From: Myxococcota bacterium
GTDB taxonomy: Bacteria; Myxococcota_A; SURF-8; G963663525
Direction of reading: 5' to 3'
Length of the DNA stretch: 64,000 nucleotides
NCBI GenBank assembly: GCA_963676915.2
Contig: CAXXVK010000060.1
Span: 1-64,000, forward strand
Below the pieces are notes generated by a model. It saw only the letters and a program-made list of their open reading frames with translations, did no database searches and was not told where the DNA came from. Each line of letters opens with the position of its first letter. Position 1 is the first letter of the stretch. Of this stretch, positions 28,925 through 35,834 are shown one piece after another. The position numbers and the translations under genes were made by a program.

Positions 28925-29707
28925 ATGAACCTCCTGTTTTTCGGAGACATTTTCTCCAAGTCCGGTCGTAAAGCTCTGCTTCAACGACTACCCACATTGA
29001 AAAAAACCTACGACGCCCAATTCGTGATCGCCAATGGTGAAAACATGGCCGGTGGCCTGGGGATCGACCTGAAACACGCCGGCGATGTGCTGCAAGGCGG
29101 TGTGGACGTCATGACCTCGGGAAACCATATCTGGTCGGTCAAAGGAACCCCGGAATTTCTGCAACGAGAACCTCGTATCCTGCGCCCGGCCAACTACCCG
29201 GAACCCTGTCCCGGTCGAGGTTGGGTGATTCGTACGGCAGCGAACGGCGTTCCGGTAGCGGTGATCAACCTGCTGGGGCGACTGTTCATGGACCCGGTAC
29301 AATGCCCCTTCGAAACCGCCGAACGACTGATCGCCGAGATCTCCCCGATGACGCCCGTCATCCTGATCGATTTTCACGCCGAAGCCACCAGCGAGAAACT
29401 CGCCTTGGCCTATGCACTCCAAGGAAAAGTGACGGCATTGGTCGGCACGCATACGCACATACAAACTGCCGACGAACGGATATTCTCTGAACACACCGGA
29501 TATATTACGGATTTGGGAATGTGTGGACCGATGGATTCCATCATCGGCATGGACCCCGTTCCGGTGCTCGAACGTTTCCGTACCTGGCGCCGAACGCCGT
29601 TTCGTCCCGGCAAAGGACCGGTGGAACTTCGCGGCGTGGTACTCGACATCGACACGAAAACCGGTAAAACACGCTCTATCAAGCGCATCAAGGAAACGGT
29701 GGAATAG
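28925..29707 (+). CDS. ymdB: YmdB/TIGR00282 metallophosphoesterase
   Basis: LFFGDI, IANGEN, TSGNHIW, LRPANYP, DFHAEATSEK, VGTHTHIQTAD, YITDLGMCGP. Confidence 0.93.
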   Translation: MNLLFFGDIFSKSGRKALLQRLPTLKKTYDAQFVIANGENMAGGLGIDLKHAGDVLQGGVDVMTSGNHIWSVKGTPEFLQREPRILRPANYPEPCPGRGWVIRTAANGVPVAVINLLGRLFMDPVQCPFETAERLIAEISPMTPVILIDFHAEATSEKLALAYALQGKVTALVGTHTHIQTADERIFSEHTGYITDLGMCGPMDSIIGMDPVPVLERFRTWRRTPFRPGKGPVELRGVVLDIDTKTGKTRSIKRIKETVE

Positions 29708-29773
29708 TAGGAACGAAATCCACCGGGATTTCATGAAGTATTACACTTTTTCATTTTTTGGCAGGTTTAGCGT

Positions 29774-32700
29774 ATGACGATTGCCATTGTGGCCGAAAAA
29801 CCTTCCGTAGCACGGGACATCGCAAAAGTCCTCGGGGCGACCATCCCTGGAAACGGTTTCGTGCATGGAAACGGGTATATCGTCACCTGGGCCATAGGGC
29901 ACCTCGTCGCGCTGGCGGAACCGGCAGAAATTCAGGCATCCTGGAAACGATGGCGACGCGATCAGCTCCCGATGCTGCCCACGAACTGGCCGCTGAAAAC
30001 CCTCAAAGGAACCACCAAGCAGTTTCGTGCGGTGAAAAAGATTCTTGTGTCCTCCGCCGTGGATGAAGTGATTTGCGCCACCGACGCCGGACGCGAAGGA
30101 GAACTGATTTTTCGCTACATTTACGAACACTCCGGCTGCCGTGCTCCGATTCGCCGCCTGTGGATTTCGTCGCTGACCGCCGAAGCCATTCGAAACGGCT
30201 TCAAACATCTGCAAGACGGGACAAACTACGAACCTCTGTACGATGCTGCACGCGCCCGCAGTAGAGCCGACTGGCTGGTCGGCATGAACCTTTCAAGAGC
30301 CTACGGACTCACGCACGGCAAAGGGTTATCGGTAGGTAGGGTGCAGACTCCGACGCTGGCAATGATTGTGGAGCGAGAGCGGGAAATTCGGAACTTCGTA
30401 CCTGAAACCTACCTGGAAATCGAAGCCGAATTCGCACCCTCGGAAACGGTGGCTCCGAATGAAGAACCTGGAACGTACAAAGGAACCTGGTTCGACGGCC
30501 CAACGGCCGAAAGCCTGAAAAAGCTGCTGAACTTTTCACAGGAGCTTCAAAAAGCCAAGCGCCTTCCCTCCGACGGGGAACGGGCGAAACGAATCGTTCG
30601 CAGGGTTCAAAAACAAGCTGCAAACATCGAGGTTGCACAGTCCAAACCCCGGACCTACCCTGCTCCCCTGCTCTACGATCTGAGCGAACTCCAGCGCCAT
30701 GCCAACCGCCTGTACGGTTTCACGGCGAAAAAAACGCTTCAAGTCGCGCAAGAATTGTACGAGCGCAAGAAGCTTATCAGCTATCCCCGAACCGACAGCC
30801 GACACCTGAGCCGGGACATCGCCGACACGCTGCCTCGCGTCGTCGAGAAAATCTCCGCGCCTTACCGGGATTTTCTGCCGGAAAATGTAGGCCGCAAACC
30901 GTTGGGAAAACGCTTTGTAAACGATGCGAAAGTCAGCGACCACCACGCGATCATCCCCACAGCGGTCGATCCGTCGCGTAAAAAACTGACGACCGACCAG
31001 GAGAAAATCTACGATCTGATCTGCCGCCGCCTGCTGATGGCCTGGATGGACGACCACCGCACCCGGTTAACCACGGTGATTACGCGGGTAGATTCCGAAA
31101 ACGGTACGAAAACCGACCGTTTCCACTCCAACGGCACAGCCATCGAGCAGGTAGGCTGGAAAGCGCTCGACATCCAGACGAAAAAAAGCGCCAATGCCCA
31201 GGATGCGGAACTCCCCGCCGGATTGAAACAGGGATTGAAGCGCCTGTGCCAGAACGCCAAGAGTTTGAAAAAACAGACGAAACCACCCAAGCGACTTACC
31301 GACGCCACCCTGCTATCCGCCATGGAAAGCGCCGGAAAAGTGCTGGACGATAAAGAAATTTCCGCTGCGATGAGCGAACGGGGCTTGGGTACTCCGGCCA
31401 CACGAGCGGCGATCATCGAAACGCTGCTCAAACGGCAGTTCGTCCGGCGTAAAGGCAAGGCCTTCGAAGCTACATCCAAAGGAGAACGGCTGATCGACGT
31501 GGTGCATCCCCAGGTCAAAAGCCCTCAGATGACCGGCGAATGGGAGTGGAAACTCAAACGGATCGAGCGCAAAGAGGGCCAATTCGATGCCTTCATGCAG
31601 GATATCGAAAGCTACGTGCGTGAGGTGGTGGAAAACGTGTTTGGAGATTCTTCGACCCCTCCCGACGATTCCGAACCTTCCTTGCCGAACCTGCCGCCTC
31701 CGTCGCCGACACAAACGAAATCAACACCGAAAACCATGTCCCGAGCAAAACCGAAAGCAGCACAACCACCCGAAACAAGCGATCTTTTCGGGACATCGAG
31801 CCACCCGGAAGAACCGGCATGGTTGCACGACGCTCCGCCACCGGAGTGGGAAGAGATTCCACCGCCGGAATGGGAGAACGTTCCTTCAGCGGCTTCGGAA
31901 AAAGTCCCACGAGCAACGGAGAAAAACCAACCGCAGCGTTCCAATGAAACGGTCGTAGCGCCATCCTTGCCGGGATTCGAGCCACAAGTTTTAGAGGCGA
32001 AAAACATTTCCCATGATCGTGCGCTCCACAAGGAAGCATCAGGGCGGGAACCTTCGGAGATTCTACAACAGCTCTTCGGCCATAAAACTTTCCGACCACA
32101 CCAGGAAACCGTCTGCCGGGAGGTCATCGCCGGCCGGGACGTGCTCTTGGTGATGCCTACCGGAGCGGGAAAATCCCTTTGCTATCAGCTTCCCGGTGTG
32201 GCGCGTGGCGGCGTGACCCTGGTTGTTAGTCCCTTGATTTCATTGATGGAAGACCAGGCCGCCAAACTCAACGAACAGGGATTTGTCGCCGAACGCATTC
32301 ACTCGGGACGCAGCCGCCCGCAATCGCGCCAAGCTTGCAAGGATTACCTTTCCGGCACTCTGGATTTTCTGTTTATCGCCCCGGAACGTCTGCGCGTCCC
32401 CGGCTTTCCCGAAATGCTGGCCCGACGCAAACCGGCGCTTGTTGCCATTGACGAAGCCCACTGCATTTCTCACTGGGGACACGATTTTCGTCCCGATTAC
32501 CGCCTGTTGGGCGAACGCCTGCCCGTTCTGCGACCGACACCCATCATTGCACTGACCGCCACGGCCACACGAATCGTGCAAGAGGATATCGTCCGACTGC
32601 TGGGCTTGGAACACCCTCTGGAAGCGATTCACGGTTTCCGGCGGACGAACATCGCCATCGAAGTGGTGGAACTTCCACCGGCAGAGCGCCCAGACGCCGT

Positions 32701-34084
32701 GCTGCGTCTTCTGGAGGACAAAGACAGGCTTCCGGCAATCGTCTACGCGCCAACGCGCAAAAAAACCGAAGAGTTGTGCGATATACTGCAAAGTCGTTTC
32801 AAAATCGCCGCGTACCACGCCGGTCTTCCCGCCCGAACGCGCAACGACGTTCAGACAAAGTTTCTGGACGGAACGCTCGATGTCGTGGTGGCTACCGTCG
32901 CTTTCGGCATGGGCATCGATAAAGCGAACGTCCGCACCGTGGTGCATGTGGCGCTTCCGGCTTCCGTCGAGGGATATTACCAGGAGATCGGCCGAGCCGG
33001 ACGTGACGGCAAACCTTCCCGCGCCGTGCTGTATTATTCTTACGCCGACCTTCGTATCCACCAGTTTTTGCACGAAAAAAGCTATCCCCCGACCGAAGCG
33101 CTGAGCTCAGTTTTCTCGCGATTACCCAACCAACACGCGCTTCCCAAAGACGAGTTGAAAGAGCGTCTTTTCATGGACGACGACACGTTTCAGACGGCGC
33201 TCGAAAAACTGTGGATTCACGGTGGCGCATGGATCGACCCGGACGAGAACGTCCGCCGGGGCGAGAGTCGTTGGAAAACAACCTACACCGAACAGGCCGA
33301 GTATCGCAGACGACAGTTGGAAATGATGGCTCAGTTTGCCGAGTTACCCCGCTGCCGGATGCTTCAGTTGATCCGCCACTTCGGGGATCGCGGCGACGAT
33401 CAGCGCCCCTGCGGTCTTTGCGATTTCTGCGCTCCCGAGAGCGCTTTGGCCGACACTCGGCGTCCTCCCACAGGCGAGGAAAGACGAATTGTCTCCTGCA
33501 TCATCGAGACGCTGGAAGAGCGCGATAACCTCAGCACCGGCAATCTCTTCAAACGCGCCTGCGAAGGATTGCGCACCGAACGTCGCGAATTCGAACGACT
33601 TTTGACGGCGATGGCGAGAGCAGACCTTGTGGATATCCGAGAAGATTCGTTTTCGAAAAACGGTCGAGAGATCCGCTTCAGACGGGCTTGTCTGACCATG
33701 GAAGGACGATCCTGGAACGCCTCGAAAGTCTCGACGCTGCTGGTAACGGCTCCTTCCTCAAGCGGTTCGAAAACCCGAAAAAAAGCCAAAACAAGCCGTT
33801 CGCGAACGAAAACCCACCGCAAAATTTCGACGGTTCCGGTAGCCGATGCACCACAGGGCTTGGTGGATCTTCTCAAGCAATGGCGCCTGTCTCAAGCTCG
33901 AAAACGGCGCGTTCCCGCTTTCCATATTCTCAACGACCGCACGCTGGAAGCCATCGCGGCCAGCCGTGCCATTCACGAGGACGACCTGTTGGCCGTCAAA
34001 GGCGTGGGACCGACGATCATGAAGAAGTACGGCGACCAGATATTGGAAATCATTCGAGAATTTTCGGATTCGTCAAAGCGATAA
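29774..34084 (+). CDS. topB: DNA topoisomerase III (type IA) - RecQ helicase fusion with Zn-binding, WH and HRDC domains
   Basis: N-half: AEKPS, ATDAGREGE, GRVQTPTL, ISYPRTDS (catalytic Tyr337), HHAIIPT, GLGTPATRA. Pro-rich linker. C-half: MPTGAGKSLCYQ, DEAHCISHWGHDFRPDY, LTATA, YHAG, AFGMGIDK, YQEIGRAGRDG, CR..CGLCDFC, HRDC (WR...ARKRRVPAF..L.DRTL..VKGVG..KYG). Confidence 0.93.
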   Translation: MTIAIVAEKPSVARDIAKVLGATIPGNGFVHGNGYIVTWAIGHLVALAEPAEIQASWKRWRRDQLPMLPTNWPLKTLKGTTKQFRAVKKILVSSAVDEVICATDAGREGELIFRYIYEHSGCRAPIRRLWISSLTAEAIRNGFKHLQDGTNYEPLYDAARARSRADWLVGMNLSRAYGLTHGKGLSVGRVQTPTLAMIVEREREIRNFVPETYLEIEAEFAPSETVAPNEEPGTYKGTWFDGPTAESLKKLLNFSQELQKAKRLPSDGERAKRIVRRVQKQAANIEVAQSKPRTYPAPLLYDLSELQRHANRLYGFTAKKTLQVAQELYERKKLISYPRTDSRHLSRDIADTLPRVVEKISAPYRDFLPENVGRKPLGKRFVNDAKVSDHHAIIPTAVDPSRKKLTTDQEKIYDLICRRLLMAWMDDHRTRLTTVITRVDSENGTKTDRFHSNGTAIEQVGWKALDIQTKKSANAQDAELPAGLKQGLKRLCQNAKSLKKQTKPPKRLTDATLLSAMESAGKVLDDKEISAAMSERGLGTPATRAAIIETLLKRQFVRRKGKAFEATSKGERLIDVVHPQVKSPQMTGEWEWKLKRIERKEGQFDAFMQDIESYVREVVENVFGDSSTPPDDSEPSLPNLPPPSPTQTKSTPKTMSRAKPKAAQPPETSDLFGTSSHPEEPAWLHDAPPPEWEEIPPPEWENVPSAASEKVPRATEKNQPQRSNETVVAPSLPGFEPQVLEAKNISHDRALHKEASGREPSEILQQLFGHKTFRPHQETVCREVIAGRDVLLVMPTGAGKSLCYQLPGVARGGVTLVVSPLISLMEDQAAKLNEQGFVAERIHSGRSRPQSRQACKDYLSGTLDFLFIAPERLRVPGFPEMLARRKPALVAIDEAHCISHWGHDFRPDYRLLGERLPVLRPTPIIALTATATRIVQEDIVRLLGLEHPLEAIHGFRRTNIAIEVVELPPAERPDAVLRLLEDKDRLPAIVYAPTRKKTEELCDILQSRFKIAAYHAGLPARTRNDVQTKFLDGTLDVVVATVAFGMGIDKANVRTVVHVALPASVEGYYQEIGRAGRDGKPSRAVLYYSYADLRIHQFLHEKSYPPTEALSSVFSRLPNQHALPKDELKERLFMDDDTFQTALEKLWIHGGAWIDPDENVRRGESRWKTTYTEQAEYRRRQLEMMAQFAELPRCRMLQLIRHFGDRGDDQRPCGLCDFCAPESALADTRRPPTGEERRIVSCIIETLEERDNLSTGNLFKRACEGLRTERREFERLLTAMARADLVDIREDSFSKNGREIRFRRACLTMEGRSWNASKVSTLLVTAPSSSGSKTRKKAKTSRSRTKTHRKISTVPVADAPQGLVDLLKQWRLSQARKRRVPAFHILNDRTLEAIAASRAIHEDDLLAVKGVGPTIMKKYGDQILEIIREFSDSSKR

Positions 34085-34334
34085 TCCCATGGGAAAGCTT
34101 CGCTTCGCCCATGCGTCCCACCTGCAAGGCAACAGAGGATTTTGACTCGTTTTTCTTGGAAATCCAAGAGGAGCTTTTCTCCACGGATTTGTAATGTTGC
34201 CCTTCCCGATTTTTACCAAATGTAAAAATTAGTATTGCAATATCTTTTAGTATAGTGTTTATAGTCGTTGGTCACGTTCATGACAAAATTTCTGTAAGGA
34301 TTCATTACAACTCAAAAGGGGAGAGGAAGCGAAA

Positions 34335-35834
34335 ATGAAACAGGTTTTGCACGTGTGGTTCGTTTTGTTGCTGTTCGGCTGTCTTGTGATGGGATGTGGA
34401 AGCGATGATAGCGATGACAACGGAAACCAGGACGGAGATTTGTCCGAAACCGAGGGCACCGATGACGATACGGGAGAGTCGGTAGACGGCGATATCGATG
34501 CTGTCGAAGAAGACCTTTTGGAAGACGACACAACCGAAACCACGGAAAATGAAGAGGAAACGGTTCCTGGATTGGGATTTGGAGAACTCTGCACATTAAC
34601 CATGGACGGTGCGGGTTTGTTCAACGCTGAAGCCGGGGATTGTGCTGAAGGCCTGACCTGCCTGGGGTCCGCATACGATCTAAGTTGCACGAGCGATGAA
34701 GACTGCGCGGTGGCACGTAGCTACGCGACTTGTTCCGACGAAGGGGTTTGCGGCGGTGTCTATTGCTCCATGAATTGCGATCAGTATGCAGATTGTGAGG
34801 GACTTACGGAGGAATCCTGCTGCAAAGACTGGGGCGAAGGACGCTGGTGCGTGAAAACCGAAGCCTGCACACCGGTCGGCGAATCAGGCGTCGGCGAGGC
34901 TTGTCCCTACGTGTTAAGTGACACTCAGATCCTCAACGAGGACAAAAGCACCTGCAAAAAAGACCTGTTTTGTGTCGGTAGCTGGTCCGATCTGGCATGC
35001 ACCACCGATCAGGAATGCATCGACCATTTCGGTGCGGATCATGCCCTTTGTCTCTCGGGTACCTGCGCTTTTTCGCGTTGCCTGAGCTGGTGCGACGACA
35101 ACAATCCCGCGAATTGTACGGCGGATGGGTACGAGAACGGTGCCTGCTGTGTCGAGGTCGATAACGTTCCGTTTTGTTTCCTCTCCGAGGACAACAATTG
35201 CGCGATCGAATACGACATGATTATCCGGGTTCAGGATCTGTATACCGGGCAGAATATCGAGGGTGTAACGGTGACGATTCTCGATATGGATACGGGACAG
35301 GCGATTCAGGGAATCGAACCGGTGGTTACGGACGAAGACGGTGTAGCCGGGTTCCTTTTCGGAGACGTGGAATTGTCTTCGATGGTTGCCGTCAAACAGG
35401 AAAAAGCGGATTCGTACAAAACCACGTATACACAAGATCTGGTTCCCGGGTTGGATTTCACCGTGTATAGCGTCAGCAATACATTCTATTCGCAACTGGC
35501 CACGGGACTTCAGCACCAAAACGGCAAAGGCATTTTGCTGGCCGACATCCAGGATATGGATACCCAATCCGTCGGTTGTCTCCAGGCGAGCACGGAATCA
35601 AACAACGGTCAGATTTATTACTTCGATGCCTCGATGAACGTCGCCGTAGGTCGGCAACAGACGGATCCCGATGCGGGAAGTTTCGGCATCGTCAATCTGG
35701 ACCCTGGAGAAGAAACCATCATCATTTCCGACGGTACCGACGACCTCACCGGTGGTCCGGTCTGGCTATACGCCGACAGTGTGAGCATCGTTCGATACTA
35801 TGTCTACGATTCTACGGCTGCCGGCTGTCAGTAA
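34335..35834 (+). CDS. Cys-rich lipoprotein with acidic DGD linker and C-terminal beta-sandwich (carboxypeptidase-regulatory-like) domain
   Basis: Lipobox LVMGC, Asp/Glu-rich linker, two similar Cys-rich units (LxCxGS..DL.CTxDxxC), then VQDLYTGQNIEGVTV..TDEDG. Confidence 0.75.
   Translation: MKQVLHVWFVLLLFGCLVMGCGSDDSDDNGNQDGDLSETEGTDDDTGESVDGDIDAVEEDLLEDDTTETTENEEETVPGLGFGELCTLTMDGAGLFNAEAGDCAEGLTCLGSAYDLSCTSDEDCAVARSYATCSDEGVCGGVYCSMNCDQYADCEGLTEESCCKDWGEGRWCVKTEACTPVGESGVGEACPYVLSDTQILNEDKSTCKKDLFCVGSWSDLACTTDQECIDHFGADHALCLSGTCAFSRCLSWCDDNNPANCTADGYENGACCVEVDNVPFCFLSEDNNCAIEYDMIIRVQDLYTGQNIEGVTVTILDMDTGQAIQGIEPVVTDEDGVAGFLFGDVELSSMVAVKQEKADSYKTTYTQDLVPGLDFTVYSVSNTFYSQLATGLQHQNGKGILLADIQDMDTQSVGCLQASTESNNGQIYYFDASMNVAVGRQQTDPDAGSFGIVNLDPGEETIIISDGTDDLTGGPVWLYADSVSIVRYYVYDSTAAGCQ

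Follow-up and report, generated by a model that had tools for sequence, protein, structure and literature searches.

A DNA topoisomerase III (Topo III) and a helicase of the RecQ family are joined in one polypeptide encoded within a 64,000-nucleotide stretch of a Myxococcota bacterium genome (NCBI GenBank assembly GCA_963676915.2, contig CAXXVK010000060.1, positions 1 to 64,000 of the forward strand; hereafter, the window). The gene occupies positions 29774..34084 (+) of the window as one open reading frame (ORF) with an ATG start and 0 internal stops, and its product is 1436 amino acids (aa) long. It is a real single-chain protein with the order Topo III, linker, RecQ, and HRDC domain, and both of its sets of catalytic residues are intact. 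The fusion is an apparently undescribed variant of a known partnership. It belongs to a large and old family that occurs in at least two phylum-level groups of bacteria, and nothing sets the gene in the window apart from other members. We think it probable that the product is a real bifunctional enzyme, in which RecQ and Topo III are tethered to one another for the unlinking of DNA.

The ORF listing and its translation bear out the initial annotation of this DNA, which had described a single uninterrupted frame of 1436 aa with no stop between the halves. Pfam searches matched Toprim, Topoisom_bac, DEAD, Helicase_C, RecQ_Zn_bind, and HRDC, in that order from the N-terminus to the C-terminus (Table 1). 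Among NCBIfam models, the Topo half exceeded the cut-offs of NF005829 'DNA topoisomerase 3' (687 bits vs. 597) and of topB TIGR01056 (591.5 vs. 515.75), and the RecQ half exceeded that of recQ_fam TIGR00614 (397.1 vs. 219.8). The motifs named at the outset sit where they had been placed: AEKPS at aa 7-11, DAGREGE at aa 104-110, and Tyr337 within SYPRTDS in the Topo half; Lys800 within GAGKS, DEAH at aa 893-896, and Cys1194/1213/1216/1219 in the RecQ half. The protein was aligned with other members of the family, giving a set of 36 fusions that are 53-78% identical to it. Purifying conservation was evident throughout the functional sites: E8, D104, E108, E110, Y337, and R339 of the Topo half, Q777, K800, D893-H896, W901, F905, R906, R1074, and R1077 of the helicase motor, and C1194, C1213, C1216, and C1219 of the zinc site were invariant in 36/36. 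With topB-class models above their cut-offs and its catalytic residues invariant in every aligned fusion, the Topo III core is intact, as first described.

Misassembly does not account for the fusion. Public run X1, assembled separately, yielded a 15,423-base contig that covered positions 29500-34300 with 0 differences and 0 gaps, and the run contains all sampled words of the linker region. X1 is possibly the source sample of the window itself, and so its match checks the assembler, not the sample. In a second study (X2), short contigs from a relative at 90-99% likeness span both borders of the linker (31512-31734 and 31961-32285), with no insertions or deletions reported there. Depth at the locus was low in the X1 contig (4.8) and the genome is a 74-contig assembly; the contigs compared showed no stop or misassembly over the linker region. 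A genome of the same genus (G001) carries the fusion in one frame of 1418 aa at 78% identity, and close relatives are therefore not always split.

By sequence comparison the Topo half belongs to the Topo III class and not to Topo I. It aligned with residues 4-603 of Escherichia coli Topo III at an expectation value (E) of 3.6e-98 (333 bits), vs. about 117 bits only for Topo I, and scored 233.2 against the topA_bact model, under the cut-off of 456.4. When proteins of related genomes were aligned across classes (6 fused, 5 standalone Topo III, and 5 topA-like), the active-site motif was YPRTDS in the fused and standalone Topo III rows and YMRTDS in the topA-like rows. A segment at aa 519-534 was present in 5/6 fused and 5/5 standalone Topo III proteins, and was represented by a 16-column gap in 5/5 topA-like proteins; it aligned with the corresponding stretch of E. 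coli Topo III with a 1-residue gap. The E. coli coordinates used to place this segment are those we take to be the decatenation loop of Topo III. Passages of PMC4191389 describe the role of that loop in decatenation. Considering its TOPRIM acidic residues, Tyr337, and the extra loop absent from Topo I, the Topo half appears to be a topoisomerase III of the decatenase type.

In the RecQ half, the motor (aa 761-1102) aligned with the E. coli RecQ core (1oyw, residues 14-355) at E 9.1e-101, and the stretch formed by W901, F905, and R906 is presumably the RecQ 'aromatic loop'. A full RecQ with a winged helix had been claimed initially; the motor, zinc site, and HRDC domain of that claim were confirmed by Pfam, while the winged helix found no support in sequence, with the Pfam RQC model unmatched at E <= 0.01, and so was judged by fold. 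An AlphaFold2 model of the RecQ half (aa 750-1436), built on a 30-row alignment, had a mean predicted local distance difference test score (pLDDT) of 89.3 and a predicted template modelling score (pTM) of 0.78, with disorder confined to aa 1330-1356. Foldseek matched this model to the catalytic core of E. coli RecQ (1oyw; E 2.8e-36, template modelling score 0.72 by target length) and also to 4tmu, and more weakly to BLM and RECQ1. A winged helix is predicted at aa ~1234-1307, and the model as a whole matches RecQ cores that contain one; both the zinc and the winged-helix parts of RecQ are present in the predicted fold.

An insert of ~65 aa (aa ~1104-1169), modelled as three helices and a beta-hairpin, separates lobe 2 of the motor from the zinc site. 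It carries an invariant EKLW..G (aa 1144-1151), and typical RecQ proteins are without it. Folded alone, the insert had a pLDDT of 89.9, and its nearest solved folds by Foldseek were all winged-helix regulators (SarZ/MarR, IclR, HlyU, and TubR; best E 4.3e-3). We call the insert 'winged-helix-like' because every match to a winged helix-turn-helix stays above E 0.001. As modelled, the RecQ part thus combines a superfamily 2 (SF2) motor with zinc-binding, winged-helix, and HRDC units and with an insert typical of its clade.

The linker between the halves, initially put at ~130 Pro-rich residues, measures 135 aa in the window (aa 626-760), of which 27 are Pro, and is of low complexity. Between the same aligned positions in the 36 fusions its length ranges from 28 to 355 aa, and it is Pro-rich and unalignable throughout. 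Such a hypervariable linker argues for a loose tether over a rigid machine: given its variation in both length and sequence, coupling of the two halves would probably act via proximity and not, as in reverse gyrase, via a fixed interface. A complex prediction between the Topo core (aa 1-625) and aa 1100-1436 of the RecQ half returned a score of 0.00, which speaks neither for nor against binding. Within the window's linker, at 31808-31876 (aa 679-701), EEPAWL is followed by PPPEWE twice, and this motif is kept in the protein from the same genus. Other linkers contain runs of Pro, acidic, and aromatic residues (PPPPTDDDYF, PPPPEDSDYY, and IDWGD twice). A pattern for such runs, written post hoc and applied to sequences that are related to each other, matched 10/36 linkers vs. 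a shuffled mean of 1.5; the window's own linker lies outside the exact pattern. These runs may represent a short docking motif.

Table 1. Features of the Topo III-RecQ fusion gene and its 3' flank, in window coordinates
Feature	Coordinates	Strand	Basis
Whole fusion ORF (Topo III-linker-RecQ)	29774..34084, stop codon included	+	ORF and translation; single open frame for both halves
TOPRIM domain, aa 4-133, containing Glu8 and, in DAGREGE, D104/E108/E110	29783..30172	+	PF01751, E 2.9e-12
Type IA topoisomerase core, Topo III class by sequence, aa 152-609	30227..31600	+	PF01131, E 4.2e-115
Codon of catalytic Tyr337 in SYPRTDS	30782..30784	+	Y337 and R339 invariant in 36/36 fusions
16-residue segment, aa 519-534, at the presumed E. 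coli Topo III decatenation-loop position	31328..31375	+	Alignments
Pro-rich low-complexity linker, aa 626-760	31649..32053	+	Composition; no Pfam match
Linker repeat PPPEWE x2	31835-31852 and 31859-31876	+	Sequence
RecQ lobe 1, aa 774-936: motif 0 Gln777, Walker A Lys800, DEAH 893-896, W901/F905/R906	32093..32581	+	PF00270, E 6.9e-27
RecQ lobe 2, aa 973-1079, motif VI R1074/R1077	32690..33010	+	PF00271, E 7.8e-23
Clade-specific insert, aa ~1104-1169, predicted winged-helix-like	33083..33280	+	Gap vs. recQ_fam model positions 342-348; model
RecQ zinc-binding subdomain, aa 1172-1219, Cys1194/1213/1216/1219	33287..33430	+	PF16124, E 4.6e-08
Canonical RecQ-C winged helix (predicted), aa ~1234-1307	33473..33694	+	Model elements H485-500 to E549-558
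Second disordered spacer (predicted), Lys/Ser-rich, aa 1330-1356, before HRDC	33761..33841	+	pLDDT <50 at model residues 581-607
HRDC domain, aa 1362-1427	33857..34054	+	PF00570, E 3e-16; helical bundle in model
Terminator-like hairpin (weak), 65 nt 3' of stop codon	34149..34174	+	Site scan

The fusion is far from confined to the window. When the whole protein was searched against 5.8 billion clustered proteins, 8000 candidates were scored, and 4788 of them reached E <= 0.001. Among the best 120 of these 4788 matches (the query included), 120/120 carried the six-domain set in 1293-1627 aa. Their names, where given, were 'DNA topoisomerase 3/III', consistent with the early guess that similar ORFs would be found under a plain 'topoisomerase III' label, and their sources were metagenome-assembled genomes (MAGs) of Acidobacteriota (Thermoanaerobaculia, Bryobacteraceae, and Solibacter) with a few MAGs labelled Pseudomonadota. 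Within the window's phylum, 157 of 401 sampled genomes had a match at E <= 1e-120; counting only genes with both halves in one frame of >= 1150 aa and leaving out 68 weaker rows, a one-frame fusion was found among the matches listed in 38/401 genomes, including the window's own (G000). The phylum of an Oligoflexus genome had one-frame fusions in at least 20 of 131 genomes, with two more probable, and the phylum of a Bryobacterales genome had them in 4/61 at E <= 1e-190. The genome samples of the window's phylum and of the Bryobacterales phylum have no genome in common, a hint that the two phyla differ.

Fused loci were also recovered by a related-loci search keyed on patterns from the DEAH region, the results of which are no measure of frequency. 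The search returned 80 loci, of which six were fused: Bryobacterales (L007), Solibacteraceae (L009 and L013), an Acidobacteria MAG (L016), Oligoflexus (L020), and an 'uncultured proteobacterium' (L025). The other 74 held RecQ without a Topo half in the examined stretch, because the search patterns fell in the DEAH region. Identity between fused lineages was 42-59%. The proposal, made from the window alone, that 'this lineage' had invented the fusion did not survive these comparisons, as the family spans at least two phylum-level groups. Variants of the arrangement were seen as well. At G312:C2:223723-228340 the Topo half (in a 2146-aa frame) adjoins the RecQ half (in a 904-aa frame) in a different frame; the two may be naturally separate genes, or a frameshift may divide them. 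Four fused genes lie in longer frames of 1990, 1972, 1601, and 1548 aa (G128:C75:13503-17663, G388:C64:15517-19851, G277:C55, and G080:C398), which suggests that extra domains were added to the fusion in some lineages.

The history of the two halves was reconstructed separately, with quick IQ-TREE runs and support from the Shimodaira-Hasegawa-like approximate likelihood ratio test (SH-aLRT) only. In the RecQ tree (65 rows, rooted on 9 typical RecQ proteins), the fused RecQ halves and the insert-bearing standalone RecQs formed one clade with SH-aLRT 100, set off by a long branch from typical RecQ. A standalone group from Acidobacteriaceae and Ktedonobacteraceae (support 99) was nested among the fused rows with starred support, and standalone rows from Myxococcota, along with those from three genomes of the window's own order (G006, G008, and G009), fell in unresolved parts of the clade. 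The label fused or standalone changed 5 times over this tree, with at least 3 of the changes forced by well-supported branches. In the Topo tree (59 rows, rooted on 5 topA-like proteins), all 34 of 34 fused Topo halves fell in one clade of SH-aLRT 100, within which 0/20 standalone Topo III proteins were found; the gathering of fused Topo halves in a single clade points to one old fusion. In either tree the earliest-branching fused rows are the Oligoflexus protein and L025, which implies that the halves evolved together.

Trees of this kind carry their own caveats: the fused rows were chosen from among the best matches, L025 has a long branch, and the direction in which changes are read is set by the choice of root. 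The simplest reading of the sequences would be as follows: one old fusion, halves that have since co-evolved, and some lineages from which the Topo half was later lost. Standalone members of the fusion's RecQ clade are likely descendants that have lost the Topo half. The loci of those in the window's order (L003, G009:C40; L004, G008:C202; L005, G006:C112) are 53-55% identical to aa ~753-1430 of the fusion. Five other genomes of the order (G002-G005 and G007) gave neither RecQ nor Topo III matches.

Copy status was determined in nine fusion-bearing genomes (G000, G001, G023, G028, and G041-G045). The fused RecQ was the sole RecQ-family gene in 8/9 of them, the fused Topo III was the sole topB-class gene in 7/9, and a topA-like gene was present in 8/9. 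In the window's own assembly, the Topoisom_bac family and topB matched the fusion gene only, and recQ_fam was above its cut-off only there (the next match scored 60.6 bits); these profile searches of the 90.8%-complete genome found no standalone topB or recQ. This assembly was also the exception with respect to topA, as PF01131, TIGR01051, and the TopA protein of the same genus all matched the fusion only. Most likely no topA-like gene was found because the assembly is incomplete (5.2 Mb and 90.8%, vs. 7.1 Mb for the congener). Were the absence real, that genome would have no type IA topoisomerase other than the fusion. The congener's TopA lies at G001:C1:2200536-2202212.

The fusion is a solo chromosomal gene, outside any island or partner operon. 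Its neighbours in the window are housekeeping genes (a YmdB-like phosphoesterase, a thiolase, a metallo-beta-lactamase (MBL) hydrolase, and Nuo subunits). A comparison with 7 other fused loci revealed no conserved partner gene, the neighbours sharing nothing, and no SSB, Rmi1-like, or RecJ-like gene is adjacent to the fusion in the window or at those 7 loci. A 499-aa ORF downstream of the fusion (34335-35834, +) matched no Pfam family, nor did the ORFs flanking the fusion gene of the same genus (L002:297-1433 and L002:5783-6715). A scan for promoters and terminators found sites to be no commoner than in shuffles (7 vs. a mean of 9.5) and no promoter-like site upstream of the fusion start; the hairpin at 34149-34174 is only suggestive of a terminator. 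In family f9 of the window's phylum, a typical recQ lies unfused 3-10 kb from a topA-like gene that is 30-32% identical to the Topo half (G014:C3:46786-52881, G025:C24:215551-221488, G035:C97:282082-288028, and G020:C1:504815-516911).

Because most carriers have no RecQ and no Topo III besides the fusion, it most likely does the joint jobs of the E. coli pair. The two activities, the DNA on which they act, and any benefit of working in cis are inferred. With ATP, the RecQ part would unwind duplex at late replication intermediates, at converging forks, and at recombination intermediates (for example, double Holliday junctions and hemicatenanes). Topo III, on its tether, would then cut the exposed single strand and pass the other strand through, unlinking the two without crossovers. 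The tether would hold Topo III beside the helicase at high local concentration, and would replace the recruitment that depends on SSB in E. coli, or on Rmi1 and the Sgs1/BLM N-terminus in eukaryotes. A much stronger version can be framed, in which the fusion is an obligately coupled and self-sufficient prokaryotic dissolvasome on a single chain, needing neither SSB nor an Rmi1-like factor to dissolve double Holliday junctions and hemicatenanes and to resolve converging forks. Its tether would confer traits absent from a mixture of the enzymes, for instance processive, ATP-paced strand passage, and, from one early origin, the fusion would have served many bacteria of the Acidobacteriota and Bdellovibrionota types as their only RecQ/Topo III system. 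This version is tentative, and we would sooner expect it to fail than to hold; if it were true, the repeated later losses of the Topo half would point to lineages that came to resolve such intermediates in another way.

Several observations weigh against a bifunctional unlinking enzyme. Three genomes of the same order (G006, G008, and G009) have a standalone RecQ of the fusion clade with no Topo III anywhere and only a topA-like gene, and the existence of lineages with the RecQ part alone implies that a RecQ of this clade works without a fused Topo III. Sole-copy status has exceptions: G044 has a second RecQ besides the fusion, and both G042 and G044 have a standalone Topo III. The status is also soft in the window's own genome, which is 90.8% complete, and holds in the 96%-complete G001. 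The RecQ half scored 502.3 against the recQ equivalog TIGR01389, under the cut-off of 640.2, and is therefore a RecQ-family helicase and not an orthologue of the E. coli type (the equivalog NF008279 gave 415.1, likewise under its cut-off of 1015). The fused member L025 is without the decatenation-loop segment. The hypervariable linker points to no fixed contact between the halves, and in one variant, P0091 (1627 aa, from a cluster whose members are 1616-1627 aa long), named 'DNA topoisomerase III/RecQ family ATP-dependent DNA helicase' by one source, a zeta-toxin-like domain (PF06414) lies inside it. Finally, a search of public runs for the stretch listed no RNA run.

The most serious rival holds that the halves are joined for co-expression only. 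Fusion would ensure equal amounts or shared regulation, or the linker would be cut after translation; Topo III would act on precatenanes and RecQ in gap repair, with no coupling in cis. In its favour, the linker is disordered, of low complexity, and 28-355 aa long, RecQ-only descendants of the fusion clade exist, and passages of PMC4191389 report that Topo III of E. coli contributes to chromosome segregation in a way that does not depend on RecQ. Set against these points, the one-frame fusion has been kept through deep divergence (42-59% identity, across phylum-level groups) and its Topo halves form a single clade, a persistence easier to explain if linkage itself is selected. Moreover, 0/20 sampled standalone Topo III proteins fall in the fused Topo clade, whereas RecQ-only members sit among the fused rows of the RecQ tree. 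We consider co-expression alone improbable, and prefer a tethered enzyme with linked activities.

Two further functions are very unlikely. The first is a machine like reverse gyrase, its helicase using ATP to drive positive supercoiling or a one-way change in linking number. The shared feature is the fusion of a helicase with a type IA topoisomerase, and reverse gyrase is described in the abstract of PMC7245102 as a fusion of such units. The domain order is the opposite, however; the reverse gyrase model (rgy TIGR01054) scored 110.1 vs. a cut-off of 471.7, with the match confined to the Topo core; the helicase is a full RecQ, with a predicted winged helix and HRDC, and not a minimal SF2 module; and the linker is floppy and variable with no fixed interface. 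The named hosts, moreover, are Acidobacteriota and Oligoflexus of soil and water, which are not known as hyperthermophiles.

The second, hardly to be expected either, is a mobile-element or defence function, such as that of plasmid-borne Topo III or of RecQ-like helicases of the DpdF type. The RecQ half does have a match to the DpdF model, at 210.7 bits under the cut-off of 550, and P0091 carries its zeta-toxin-like domain in the linker. Against this stand the metabolic and housekeeping neighbours in the window, the unrelated neighbours of the 7 other fused loci, among which no integrase, conjugation, or defence gene was found, and the usual status of the fusion as the sole RecQ and sole Topo III of its genome. 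As for an artefact, in which a sequencing error or a chimeric contig would have merged two neighbouring genes, the 74 contigs and low depth (4.8) leave it a negligible chance beside the same 4.8 kb assembled separately from X1 with 0 differences, the contigs of a relative in another study across both linker borders, the same single frame in the same genus, and a fusion shared by >60 further genomes and the best 120 database proteins.

No description of a natural Topo III-RecQ fusion was found in a search of full-text literature, a coverage that leaves most subscription journals outside, and the initial statement that no characterisation was known agrees with that result. Term searches gave no RecQ in PMC10969213, a review of type IA diversity, and none of RecQ, helicase, HRDC, or DEAD in PMC9369019, which surveys the C-terminal domains of type IA enzymes. 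In two other papers so searched, Topo III and RecQ are named only as the E. coli pair (PMC8185306) or RecQ occurs only in the reference list (PMC5512222). The architecture is open to view in domain databases, and nothing is overturned by it. Annotation would nevertheless benefit, since thousands of fusion proteins are labelled only 'DNA topoisomerase 3', a label that conceals what is usually the sole RecQ of the genome. The abstract of PMC7245102 has hyperthermophiles 'uniquely' fusing helicase and topoisomerase units, as reverse gyrase; the claim is qualified by a second helicase-topoisomerase fusion, widespread, mesophilic, and of opposite order.

How DNA is handed over from RecQ to a type IA topoisomerase is an open mechanistic question, both for human BLM-TOP3A-RMI and for E. 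coli RecQ-Topo III-SSB. Because these are multi-subunit and weakly held, their stoichiometry and geometry are hard to control. A natural single chain fixes the ratio at 1:1 and has a tether that can be defined and altered, and so makes the question of coupling in cis directly testable.

Among known systems, the closest is that of E. coli RecQ, Topo III (TopB), and SSB, in which the same two enzyme families are found and in which, as in the fusion, zinc, winged-helix (in the fusion, by predicted fold), and HRDC parts follow the motor. Their partnership in strand passage is described in passages of PMC4191389: citing Harmon 1999 and Suski & Marians 2008, these have RecQ unwinding give Topo III the single strand it needs, and the pair pass strands, decatenate, and resolve junctions. 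The fusion differs in being one polypeptide and not two. The short C-terminal tail of E. coli Topo III is replaced by the 135-aa linker and RecQ, and, compared with E. coli RecQ, the helicase has the extra winged-helix-like insert of ~65 aa before the zinc site and falls under the recQ equivalog cut-off. Also close are the standalone 'long-insert' RecQs of Acidobacteriaceae, Polyangiaceae, Ktedonobacteraceae, and relatives in the window's order, which belong to the fusion's RecQ clade and share the insert (49-56% identity over aa ~760-1430); unlike the fusion, they stand alone, the 6 kb upstream containing no Topo III where that flank was examined. In reverse gyrase, the natural fusion that has been characterised, an SF2 helicase-like module is joined to a type IA topoisomerase, but its helicase is N-terminal and a non-RecQ minimal module, its inter-domain interface is fixed, and its hosts are hyperthermophiles.

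The eukaryotic complexes Sgs1-Top3-Rmi1 and BLM-TOP3A-RMI1-RMI2 (the 'dissolvasome') likewise join a RecQ-family helicase to an enzyme of the Topo III class. The disordered N-terminus of Sgs1 and BLM binds Top3. In the fusion, too, Topo III lies on the N-terminal side of the helicase across a long disordered region. The abstract of PMC3905885 bears on this binding of Top3 by Sgs1/BLM. No Rmi1-like OB-fold (oligonucleotide/oligosaccharide-binding) partner was found among the neighbours of the fusion in the window and at 7 fused loci, no genome-wide search having been made. According to passages of PMC4191389, human TOP3A is without a decatenation loop, and RMI1 has been suggested to supply one; the Topo half of the fusion, by alignment, would have a loop of its own. 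Where the eukaryotic enzymes depend on protein-protein binding, the physical association of RecQ and Topo III in the fusion is covalent, within one conserved ORF.

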